Notes under the pieces: model-generated
Seen by the model: only the letters and a program-made list of their open reading frames with translations
What the model was told of the DNA's origin: nothing
Database searches by the model: none
DNA from: Eledone cirrhosa
Taxonomy: Eukaryota
DNA length: 64,000 bases
Direction: 5' to 3'
NCBI GenBank assembly: GCA_964016885.1
Contig: OZ024753.1
Span: forward strand, 30,504,001-30,568,000
Shown here: in pieces, positions 40,227 through 62,518 of the stretch
Layout of the letters: each line of letters opens with the position of its first letter
Numbering within the stretch: the first letter of the stretch is position 1
Position numbers and translations under genes: made by a program

Positions 40227-40402
40227 CAAAGGCTAAGGTGTCATCTCTCCCGGTTATTTTGGATGGCCATTGATTCTTAAGAGCTCCTTTGCCCTTTGAC
40301 AGGTTTTGTTTTTAGTCCTGCAGGATGTCCAAAATTACCCTCCTCACCAAGAAACCTTTTGTGGGGTTACCAGTTTAGTCGCCAACGACCCGACCATGAG
40401 AC
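40227..40402 (-). mobile_element. RTE-derived family 1, 5' part only (left module of composite copy 1)
   Basis: Matches 54089-54264, including the same end point and the aacgacccgacc variant. Confidence 0.75.
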
Positions 40403-40420
40403 ATACATACATACATACAT

Positions 40421-43400
40421 CAGTCAGTCAGTCAGTCAATCAACGCGATCAGTCGCATATTTTGGCGTGGGAGACTATTTATTAAATTTAAGATGAATAC
40501 TATCTCCGACAGTAATCCCACAACTACAGCCAGGTTGAATAACTGGTTATTCTTCTAACTATCCCTTCTGAAGACACCTTTTATTCGAATTCGTAGAGAT
40601 ATCCGACTAAATACGTAATTCATTTTACAAGGATTTGCTACAAACAGCATGGCTGAACACAACATCAACAAGAAAATTAAGGAAGTATCGAAGACAAATA
40701 ACAAAGAAGGTAATCAAACTTTATTCAGCTGTAGCTACAGAAGAAACCGAAATTATAAATCGCATTTCTCTTGGAGTTGCGAACTTAATAATGATTTATT
40801 TAATTGTACTAAAATGGCAAAAAGCAATCCCTCCATTGGCTATATGAATAGAATGAAGCTACACTGGGACGAAATGCACCCAGAGCTAAATTATTTCTCA
40901 GCGAAACAATTACGCCAACAAGCGACGTTTGTTGAACGTAAAAATAAGATAAATATTATTAATTGTAAGTCCCCCACAACAAACATGGAATCAACAACAC
41001 GTGCTACAGATCGCCATGCTACTAGACTTCCTAGCAGCCAGGTCGAACAGCGCCTTGAAACAACTATGCCTGTACCATCTAAGTCTACCTCGAATGCTGG
41101 GGAAAACACTATCGATAATAATAATAATCGAAGAAATAATAATAATAATCGAATAAATGTGACACCACGTATACCATCCGAGTCTACCTCGACTGTTGTG
41201 GAAAATACTATCGATAATGATAATCAAAAGTATAAACAATTGAAAATTTCCCTCAACGAAATCTTCCAGAGAGAAATTAACTCATGTATAAATATCTCTC
41301 TGGCTGAACATGTTAAAATGACAATGGTGAATAAAAAACCAAATAATGAAATACTACGTGTTATTGACGAAATAGGGGATGAATATTTACGACGGATAAA
41401 AACCCCAACATTTTGGCAAATCAACGCCTGTTTATATGCCTTAGCAATGACAGTGAAGCATTATCTTGGTGATAGCAGAGATATTAATAAGAACAAAACA
41501 CCACCAAAAATACCATCATATATAACTAAAATAGAAAAAAAGAGTGCTGACCTAGGAAAAAACATAGGACATGTGACAATGCTCCTTACATGCAAACAAA
41601 CACAAAAAAACCTCACTCCTCACCAACAAAGAGTGAAAAATAAAATAGAGACGATGTTTGGTAACAGTAGAACCAGAACTCTCCAATATAAGCTGATCAC
41701 CCTCAAACAAGAATTGAGAGCTGTTAGCGAAAAACGCCGATACCTGAAGAAGGTAGATGAGAGAAAAATGCTTAATAAAAGATTCAGACGAAACCAAACA
41801 TCAGTCTATAGAGATATGAAGGGCAAAATAATAAGTGTCACTGAGGCCCCATCCCAGAAAGACACAGATTCCTTTTGGAGAAAAATATGGGGTGAAAAGA
41901 AGAATTTCAACCAAGATGCAGTGTGGCTAAGAGAAATCTGAAAGAACTATTGCTCCTACACTACAACAAAAACATACGAAATAAGTGAGGGTACCCTTGA
42001 GACTGTGATAGGAAAACTCCAAGATAAGAAAACACCAGGAAGAGACATAATTGTCGGCTACTGGTACAAAAAACTAATATTCTATCGGAGGTATCTTACT
42101 GACCTCTACCAACAAGTTCTTAAGGGAGATACACTTATACCAGAATGGTTGACATTAGCACAAACGTTACTGGTCCCCAAGAACAAAGACACCCACTTGG
42201 CAAAAAACTACCGACCCATTGCATGCCAAAACCTGATGTATAAGATGTATACAGCCTGCCTGAACCTATTCCTCCAAGATCACTGTGAAAATAATATCAT
42301 CATCACAGATGAACAAGCAGCTGGAAAGAAAAGGGTTTGGGGATGTGCTGAACAACTCCTAATCAACAAAACTGCGATGTCCGAGGTGCGACAACTTAGG
42401 AGGAATATGAGTACAGTCTGGCTGGAGTACAAGAAAGCTTTCGATTCTGTTCCCCACTCTTGGATGATAGAGGCCCTCCAACTTGCTAAAGTCCCAGACA
42501 TTATTGTCAGAGTCATAGAGAGGCTGTCTTCTTCTTGGGCTACTATCCTAAGGTTAAAGACAGAGAGGGAGGACTCTATTTTCACTGATAAAATAAAATA
42601 TTGCAGGGGTATATTTCAGGGGGACAGTCTCTCTGTGATATTGTTCATCTTGTCATTAAACCCCTTGTCCTTTCTGCTCAAGAAATGTGAGGGATACATC
42701 ATTGGCTCACAGGAGGACAGAAATACGAACCTAACCCATAACTTCTTTGTGGACGATCTGAAACTCTATGCCAAGAACATGGATGGGATGAAGAAAAATC
42801 TTGACCTGGTTACAACGTTCTCAAAGGATATAGGAATGGAGTTTGGCCAAGATAAATGCTCATACATGACTGTAAAGCGGGGGAAAACAACAACCCAATC
42901 TAACAACATTGTCATCAATGGTCTAACTGTTTCACCGATATCTGATGAGGACTGCTACAGATACCTGGGGGTAGATGAGAACATATCCTATAATGGTATC
43001 TGTAATAAAGAACGCGTAACCAGGGAATACTACACCCGATTAAGAAAGATCTGGTCATCGGAACTCTCTGCGCAAAACAAAACAGTGGCTCACAATGTGT
43101 TTGCTGTGCCTGTCCTAACACCAACGTTTGGAATACTCAATTGGACGATAGACGAAATCCGAGCAGTTGATGTTGGAACTCGAAAAATACTGAACAACAC
43201 CGGAAACTTCCACATCAACAGTGACATAGACCGCCTTTACTTGAAACGTAAGCAGGGAGGCAGAGGCCTAACATCAGTCCAGACAATATTTGAAAGTCGC
43301 ATCATATCTCTCCGACAACATCTACGAACCTCGAAGCGTAGGAGCCCGCTTCTCGAGCAAGTCTATCTGCATGAAACAGATAAGATCATGAGAGTTGGGA

Positions 43401-61400: not shown

Positions 61401-62060
61401 ATAAATGTAGGCTATGTAAAACAAAGATCGAGGATGTAAGCCACATTGTTGCCAGCTGCGAACGAATGTCATCTCGCTACTACCTCCCAATGAGACACGA
61501 TGGGATAGCTAGAACCATCTGGAACGCACTTCGGAAAACAAAATTAACAACAAACGAGGAAGAATATATTGAGACAGATGGCACTAAGGAATACTGGTGG
61601 AACCTGAAAATAAAAACTGTCACCAAATTAAAGCACAACCGGCCTGATATTGTAGTTTGGGACCACACATTGAAAACGTGTTCTGTTGTGGAGATCATCT
61701 GCCCACTTGATGTAAACGTTGTCAGAAAAATACAGGAGGAGGAGGACATCTACGGACCATTGATGAGGAGTTTACAAATCCAGTATCCAAGATACACCTG
61801 TAGCTTCATACCCATCATTATTGGAGCTACGGGTTATATACCAACCCGCTTGGACCAAAGTATGACTGAACTTGGATTTGCGGACAAAAAACGCAGCTCC
61901 CTAATTCATAGTCTACAAATGGCTGCGATAGCTGGCACCTTCAAAATTTGCAAAACATTCTTGCGATTCAAGGGATGACAATTTCTTTTCTTTTACAACC
62001 TTGCCACCAGGAAGGTGGCCGGTCAAAAAAATATACTCGAAATTAAGAGAAAGAGATAAC
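58414..62060 (+). mobile_element. R4/Dong-clade element, family B, copy 2 (full length, disrupted ORF 58491-61978)
   Basis: Starts cagtcg. Myb-like QWSYELN...GFMQRLKTLW, then RT, CRLC knuckle (about 61405) and RLE. Followed by (ATAC)n at 62059-62146. Confidence 0.92.
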
Positions 62061-62518
62061 ATACATACATACATACATACATACATACATACATACATAC
62101 ATACATACATACATACATACATACATACATACATACATACATACATATTCTCAACGCTTAAAAAGCCAAAAATTAGGTTTCGTACATTATATATATATAT
62201 ATATATATATATACTACGTTAAGGTATCAAAACATATTTAATATGTATGATGATGATTATATATATATATAGAGTAATAATAATAAACGTGAAGATTAAA
62301 ATCAGAAGATCCCGTTAAGAATGAAAGCAGCGATTCTTTGCTTAAACTTTAATCTGTTGTGTGTGTGTGTGTGTGTGTATATATATATATACACACACAC
62401 ACAACTTGAACCCTCTTCCTGGTGGAGGCGTACGGGAATCGTCGTCGTGACATACGGTGTGGCTTGGGCATTTGAAACTTAGTGTAGCCAATCCCTCTTC
62501 AACCATATATATATATAT

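Follow-up and report, generated by a model that had tools for sequence, protein, structure and literature searches.

Two R4/Dong-type retrotransposon families of Eledone cirrhosa likely target (ATAC)n microsatellites

RESULTS

Copies of A and B are bounded by (ATAC)n on both sides

We analyzed a 64,000-nt stretch of Eledone cirrhosa DNA (assembly GCA_964016885.1, contig OZ024753.1, positions 30,504,001 to 30,568,000; hereafter, the window, to which all coordinates refer) that contains four plus-strand copies of two retrotransposon families, A and B. It is highly probable that A and B are high-copy families of the R4/Dong type, represented here by dead copies, which insert into existing (ATAC)n microsatellites and belong to a wider branch of elements that target (A/T)TAC repeats (WTAC, where W is A or T). 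Unlike its kin, for which TAA targets are reported, this branch likely targets four-base repeats.

In line with the first-pass annotation of this sequence, (ATAC)n repeats in one and the same orientation are located on both sides of each copy (A1, B1, A2, and B2; Table 1). Because the middle tract of an A-B pair serves as both the 3′ flank of A and the 5′ flank of B, there are six rather than eight distinct tracts. Each consists of 3.8 to 22 ACAT units (6/6 ATAC and 0/6 TAA). The 3′ junction reads ...AAC-ATAC in all four copies, the uniformity described earlier. Outside the elements, 30 of 48,570 plus-strand positions (0.06%) are preceded by at least 12 bases of ATAC repeat, so the flanking is not a matter of chance.

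All four copies are broken. B1 starts at the position equivalent to 58739 and B2 at 58416, in both cases directly behind ATAC. Since B extends upstream of 58416 in other read records (three X1 contigs and one X5 record), B2 is probably truncated too, within its 5′ untranslated region (UTR). The lesions of A1 and A2 do not overlap, and the A open reading frame (ORF) spans ~1221 codons, which bears out the earlier claim that a protein of about 1220 amino acids can be reconstructed. The two families are clearly different, as had been noted: their proteins are 55% identical over 478 amino acids of the reverse transcriptase (RT), and their DNA gives blastn matches in the RT region at only 63 to 69% identity.

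Table 1. Coordinates of elements, flanking tracts, and other repeats in the window (SINE, short interspersed element)
Feature	Position	Strand	Details
SINE-like element C fragment (copy C2), 5′ neighbor of A1	40229..40400	−	Final base as in C4; 6.4% divergent from C4
(ACAT)5, likely upstream target tract of A1	40401..40420	+	
Family A copy 1 (A1), apparently full length	40421..44530	+	
A1 ORF	40649-44309	+	Disrupted by stop at 41939 and 5-nt deletion at 43834
A N-terminal three-helix Myb/SANT-like domain	40721..40963	+	Profile and predicted structure
(ACAT)11, A1 3′ flank and B1 5′ flank	44531..44574	+	
Family B copy 1 (B1), 5′-truncated within ORF	44575..47887	+	
B1 lesions	near 46940; near 47235-47248	+	Frameshift; deletions with loss of the CCHC motif
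(ACAT)14.5, B1 3′ flank	47888..47945	+	
SINE-like element C (copy C4), 5′ neighbor of A2	53684..54262	−	Carries its own ATAC/GTAT tract at 53684-53705
(ACAT)5, likely upstream target tract of A2	54263..54282	+	
Family A copy 2 (A2), apparently full length	54283..58400	+	
A2 ORF	54511-58177	+	Stops at 54853, 57188, and 57389; frameshifts at 55242, 55470, 55727, and 56442
(ACAT)3.8, A2 3′ flank and B2 5′ flank	58401..58415	+	
Family B copy 2 (B2)	58416..62058	+	ORF region complete (58491-61978); 3 stops, 3 frameshifts
(ACAT)22, B2 3′ flank	62059..62147	+	
Family C copies	53684-54262 (−), 39356-39929, 49505-49925, 40229-40402, 3986-4198; diverged copy 50301-50456		
~220-bp repeat copies	1052-1275, 5539-5970, 14227-14700, 53037-53488, 63677-63887, and others		
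A/T array	19365-30706		Interrupted near 22-24 kb
Tandem array	12090-12790		58-bp unit × 12, 96% matches
Inverted sequence	62505-62636 and near 62660-62786		By eye

Related elements carry WTAC repeats at their ends

An alignment of 19 proteins led to 80 loci from metagenomes and 5 from genomes, the latter all distant; 16 loci were close (at least 38% identity). Ten of the 16 terminate in (ATAC)n or (TTAC)n on at least one side, four of them on both (ATAC in L003, L006, and L010; TTAC in L005). TTAC is found at the 5′ end of L001, L002, and L008 and at the 3′ end of L004, L009, and L014. In L001, the order is unique DNA, ~19 TTAC units, and the element. WTAC is present in seven of eight microsatellite 5′ flanks, the exception being L004, and in all seven 3′ tracts that were reached. 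The 3′ junction is C-WTAC in 10 of 11 cases, while 5′ joins fall 0 to 2 nt past a full repeat unit. Seven relatives have intact ORFs of 1133 to 1174 amino acids.

A common dataset prefix marks all three ATAC loci; two neighboring datasets supplied the seven TTAC loci. Counted by dataset, this amounts to approximately three independent hosts in all. Among named proteins, the closest to B is one from the octopod Argonauta hians (56% identity). No exact match to the 3′ end of A was found in metagenome contigs, and viral contigs contained no relative.

A more distant locus, L015 (29% identity), encodes an intact Dong-like ORF of 1206 amino acids between two (TAA)n tracts; several TTAC-flanked elements were in its dataset too. 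Three distant loci, L018, L019, and L081, are elements with a restriction-like endonuclease (RLE) inserted in 28S-like ribosomal DNA (rDNA), with a 13- to 14-bp duplication and a pattern resembling the hepatitis delta virus (HDV) ribozyme at the 5′ end. L081 lies within a metagenome-assembled genome titled "uncultured cyanobacterium," likely as eukaryotic contamination.

A GGAYGT motif is located 18 to 22 nt past the 5′ junction in four of eight ends (L002, L003, L005, and L010) and at 52 nt in L006. Such placement was obtained in 1 of 20,000 shuffles, with the motif picked after inspection. In the same region of A (54281-54335), TCAGT repeats and GGCGTG are found instead. We take the motif to resemble a downstream promoter element.

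Public reads reveal additional truncated copies of A behind ATAC

Four of 24 listed public sequencing runs, a list without RNA runs, were placed on positions 54100-62078; two of them, X22 and X23, are restriction site–associated DNA runs from a single study. In run X1, depth climbs from 5′ to 3′ by factors of ~12 (A) and ~33 (B), as is typical of 5′-truncated long interspersed elements (LINEs); both families are high-copy and strongly truncated at the 5′ end. At the 3′ end of A, 114 X1 contigs exit into TACATACATAC (ATAC repeats) and not into B.

Among the 15 joints listed of 579, five connect ATAC directly to a 5′-truncated A, starting at 55932, 57138, 57156, 57505, and 58126; the remaining 10 represent internal skips or repeats. 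In X22 as well as in X23, each of the five is supported by 87 to 127 reads; none lies at a CATG or AATT cut site. Four lead from the ATAC tail of A to an internal point of A. In the fifth (54144-58126), a differently truncated copy of the SINE-like element C is followed by an ATAC stretch and then by truncated A. TAC or ACAT microhomology is present at two of the five joints. The possibility that upstream ATAC is simply part of the element 5′ end was rejected, since seven different truncation points abut the repeat. The joints and the repeat-flanked relatives thus extend support for (ATAC)n targeting, proposed by the first-pass annotation, beyond the window.

WTAC-flanked elements form one clade in which ATAC users are not monophyletic

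Trees of the RT region were built from 73 sequences (quick analysis) and from 24 of those (careful analysis). All 12 WTAC-flanked sequences form one long-stemmed clade, with support of 100/100 in the 24-sequence tree and a Shimodaira-Hasegawa–like approximate likelihood ratio of 99 in the 73-sequence tree, where 38 further sequences with unread flanks also fall inside it. The clade is sister to TAA-flanked L015 plus insect proteins and stands apart from the 28S loci L018, L019, and L081, which serve as the root. The placement relies on these proxies rather than on named R4, Dong, or Rex6 elements; motifs were matched by eye to R4_AL and R4_Hmel.

Within the clade, A falls together with five TTAC elements (97/91) and B with Argonauta, L003, and L006 (98/95), the Argonauta protein being its sister (100/99). 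A single clade of ATAC users was rejected (approximately unbiased test, P = 0.0055), and none of 200 bootstrap trees united either the ATAC or the TTAC users. Therefore, the repeat tracks the dataset and not the element tree. The earlier suggestion of a possibly undescribed tetranucleotide-specific lineage stands in part: targeting of tetranucleotides is supported, but the specificity is wider than ATAC, with A nested among TTAC elements, and the label "undescribed" is not established, since Dong-R4 families are already catalogued in octopus.

Proteins of A and B have R4/Dong architecture

Each element carries one ORF, now broken, with an N-terminal three-helix domain, an RT, a CCHC knuckle, and a PD...D...E...K endonuclease motif. 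The RT matches Pfam RVT_1 (E = 1e-23), and the best PDB matches are R2 proteins (E = 1e-50). The CCHC knuckle is present in A1, A2, and B2 and is deleted in B1. The RLE motif RPDI..WD...VVEISCP and a downstream EKENIY/EEEDIY are found in A1 and B1. No Pfam match to an apurinic/apyrimidinic endonuclease (APE) was obtained; the C-terminal RLE motif is present instead.

The predicted structure of the N-terminal domain consists of three helices (pLDDT of 87). Its top structural matches include SANT, Myb, and trihelix types, with Z scores up to 6.5 (5 to 6.5 for Myb/SANT types); in an Atlas search, Myb leads with scores of 0.85 or less. A profile of the domain matches 60 of 133 long relatives, insect ones among them. 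No N-terminal zinc finger was detected by Pfam in the first 440 amino acids of A1, and the pattern is absent from all seven relatives checked. Weak Pfam matches (E of 0.007 to 0.09), all below the cutoff, were discarded as noise. The architecture expected of the R4/Dong clade, to which the first-pass annotation assigned the elements, is thus confirmed by a single ORF with RT, CCHC, and RLE, a Myb/SANT-like N terminus, and no N-terminal zinc fingers. A and B likely belong to the R4/Dong clade, outside Dong or R4 in the narrow sense.

Rfam gave no matches in nine sources, and no ribosomal RNA was present in the window or in the seven clade loci scanned. A crude pattern for the L3 loop of an HDV-like ribozyme was present in three of three 28S-inserted loci and absent from all eight WTAC 5′ ends, which is a weak test because Dong-like L015 also lacks the pattern.

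The two A-B blocks most likely descend from one chain

A1 and A2 differ at 74 of 4085 sites (1.8%), and B1 and B2 differ at 73 of 3280 (2.2%). Within 22 kb, C, A, and B follow one another in this order two times; the end of C, the (ACAT)5 tract, and the start of A are identical in both. Most likely, both A-B blocks descend from one chain through either duplication or read-through retrotransposition, with gene conversion as a third possible process. Accordingly, the window probably holds two sure and possibly three independent sets of junctions, not four. The caveat of the first-pass annotation, that there may be only two independent insertions, therefore holds, given the low divergence and the preceding C element, which stops at one and the same base in both blocks.

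Four insertions made independently, with no copying of a single chain, would account for the different 5′ ends of B1 and B2, the differences between copies in the last bases of A and of B, and the unrelated outer flanks of the two blocks. C parts also differ more than A (11/173 versus 74/4085; Fisher's exact test, P = 0.0006), B1/B2 divergence is uneven along B (P = 0.0006), and reads contain an independent C-ATAC-A junction elsewhere. We nevertheless consider this scenario improbable: the C-A-B order is duplicated within 22 kb although full-length A is rare, judging from the ~12-fold depth ramp; A1 has the letter of A2 at 8 of 25 A sites where at least 85% of reads differ from A2 (among 40 listed of 2525); and B1 and B2 are frameshifted at one common A-run. 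The ratio of nonsynonymous to synonymous divergence (0.64 for A and 0.63 for B) is not significantly below 1 (P = 0.15 and 0.10) and is uninformative on duplication versus independent insertion.

Other repeats in the window

The window is animal DNA rich in microsatellites and SINEs. Family C is SINE-like and noncoding, ~560 bp long, with copies that are 4 to 7% apart, have the orientation opposite to that of A and B, and end in AT, AC, or ATAC microsatellites. It has no Rfam match; we presume a likeness to an RTE-type 5′ UTR. A dispersed high-copy repeat of ~220 bp, with 80 to 90% identity between copies and often in tandem pairs, is probably also a SINE. An array of ~11 kb is almost purely A/T (GC content of 0 over several kilobases) with a period of 2 to 4, and another array has a longer tandem unit (Table 1). 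Close to the end of the window, a sequence appears to recur, inverted, on the far side of a short tRNA-like stretch.

DISCUSSION

Strength of the evidence and alternative explanations

Several points weigh against targeting of preexisting (A/T)TAC repeats by A, B, and their relatives. The 5′ flank evidence is drawn from the window, the reads, and the relatives and is not an unbiased count. The joints reveal only flanks lying inside the reference, each ATAC-A joint has a single read start per run with both runs coming from one study, and head-to-tail joints could equally result from template jumping by the RT. An ATAC consensus is found in none of the 13 "before" loose ends among the 24 listed of 6478; six of the 13, at AATT sites with an agreement of 0.34 to 0.35, are probably ligation chimeras, and the others resemble diverged family sequence. 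Six of the 16 close loci (L007, L011, L012, L013, L024, and L025) have no visible terminal repeat, their contigs ending inside the element or UTR. The truncated 5′ end of L004 sits in (TAA)n and not in TTAC, so the specificity is not absolute. For the N-terminal domain, which is small and helical, a Z score of 6.5 is middling, and a Foldseek search with its model produced no match at E ≤ 0.001.

A more far-reaching combination is possible, though doubtful when taken as a whole. It holds that a deep, undescribed R4/Dong sublineage in several animal hosts reads degenerate (A/T)TAC; that unrelated families within one host converge on the same repeat (ATAC in the octopod and in one dataset, TTAC in another), the target being set by host repeats or by the RNA tail rather than by the ancestry of the protein; that the 5′ ribozyme was traded for an internal promoter starting transcription inside the upstream repeat; and that these elements may be the chief active LINE in octopus genomes, using ATAC tracts and adding to their number.

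Alternatively, the endonuclease might loosely prefer A/T-rich microsatellites, the exact repeat being set by pairing of the RNA 3′ tail or by repeat abundance in the host. The dependence of the target on dataset rather than on the tree, with A among TTAC elements, agrees with this, as does the (TAA)n at the 5′ end of L004; ACAT is also among the commonest tetranucleotide tracts of the window (13, a count that includes the flanks of A and B themselves). However, neither A nor B is flanked by AAAT tracts, of which there are as many (17), or by AT or AC dinucleotide tracts, which are much commoner, and TAA-flanked L015 coexists with TTAC-flanked elements in one dataset. We regard a loose preference as unlikely; it is partly compatible with WTAC targeting, since it changes the determinant and not the outcome.

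It is very improbable that ATAC is merely a 3′ tail made by the element, with upstream ATAC arising from template jumps onto another tail or the element's own 5′ end and with no DNA target specificity: B1, B2, and four of five read joints do sit behind an A tail, as would be produced by template jumping, a known property of the R2 RT, and 5′ flanks were not counted without bias, but A1, A2, and the 54144-58126 joint have upstream ATAC with no preceding sense-strand element tail, L001 has unique DNA ahead of its (TTAC)n, and all seven truncation points adjoin the repeat.

A possible insertion pathway

R2 elements integrate by target-primed reverse transcription: the bottom strand is nicked, synthesis is primed at the RNA 3′ end, and 5′ joining is aided by microhomology. 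By analogy with this pathway, the protein of A or B would bind its own RNA, and its Myb/SANT-like domain together with the RLE would recognize the 4-bp-periodic repeat. The bottom strand may then be nicked at the TAC-WTAC phase, and the freed 3′-OH would prime reverse transcription at the RNA 3′ end. Joining of the cDNA, which in many cases would be incomplete, to the upstream repeats would allow 0 to 2 nt of slack and often involve microhomology. Because every insertion leaves repeat on both sides, a subsequent copy of A or B could land at the tail of a preceding one, so that chains of the form A-(ATAC)n-B or A-(ATAC)n-A build up. Since the insertion lies inside a repeat, a target-site duplication is unreadable. 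The likely site reader is the Myb/SANT-like domain together with the RLE, a role argued for this domain in Dong (PMC7998251; the literature is cited here from excerpts of the articles). Pairing of the RNA tail is a live alternative as the determinant of the site.

Comparison with known elements

R4/Dong elements combine an RT, an RLE, and an N-terminal SANT/Myb domain, and Dong targets (TAA)n in most insects, molluscs, and cnidarians (PMC7998251; TAA is also given in PMC3812793). Like Dong elements (Bombyx mori Dong, DongAg, DongBg, and ostracod Dong1/2), A and B encode RT and RLE in a single ORF, have a SANT/Myb-like N terminus without zinc fingers, and are inserted into microsatellites. They differ in being only 31 to 36% identical to TAA-flanked L015 and a Bombyx protein and in forming a separate clade. 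R4 and Dong carry 5′ ribozymes (PMC3774820); the lack of the L3 pattern at the WTAC 5′ ends is a possible further difference from Dong, subject to the weakness of the test. With nematode R4, A and B share the RT motifs WGC, WLDY.KA.DS, and GIFQGD, seen in R4_AL, R4-2_AS, and R4_Hmel (PMC7650587, supplement). R4 and the 28S loci L018, L019, and L081 target rDNA, whereas A and B are flanked by microsatellite; these loci are 25 to 32% identical to P0005, a member of the WTAC clade. Waldo elements (WaldoAg1/2 and WaldoFs1) target ACAY microsatellites, which include (ACAT)n and hence (ATAC)n (PMC3812793). Waldo belongs to the R1 clade, according to a cited title, and has an APE-type endonuclease, in contrast to the C-terminal RLE of A and B; the common target is convergent.

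Dong-R4 elements are abundant in octopus (PMC13282606, PMC8967140, and PMC9115989). In O. vulgaris, 51 Dong-R4 families occupy 92.7 Mb, and five families account for 1129 of 2533 recently active insertions, the top position among LINE groups (PMC13282606); a Dong consensus with a full ORF exists in O. bimaculoides (PMC9115989). These LINEs are probably the same families as A and B or sister ones. The excerpts of the three octopus articles, including part of their supplements, state no target site for Dong-R4, and ATAC or TTAC targets are absent from those of PMC4640811, PMC5035012, PMC13580325, and PMC7650587. No (ATAC)n or (TTAC)n target of an R4/Dong element was thus found in the search listings and excerpts covered; Repbase, Dfam, Kojima and Fujiwara 2004, and the Fell et al. 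survey lie outside these and may well list it. In our judgment, the chances that this specificity is so far unrecorded anywhere are about even.

Implications

A and B are no new kind of system: they behave like Dong with a different repeat, and microsatellite-targeting non-LTR (long terminal repeat) families with new repeats turn up regularly. They add (A/T)TAC as a target class of RLE-type site-specific retrotransposons. They also provide natural near-relatives with different targets, such as A (ATAC) versus L001 and L005 (TTAC), which are 55 to 60% identical, as well as relatives with intact ORFs. Such pairs let the contributions of the Myb/SANT domain, the endonuclease, and the RNA tail to site choice be separated, which is relevant to retrotransposon-based gene insertion. 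If A and B correspond to the Dong-R4 families of O. vulgaris, short-read insertion callers could miss them, and their insertions would be channeled into microsatellites, which would bear on claims about LINE activity in octopus.

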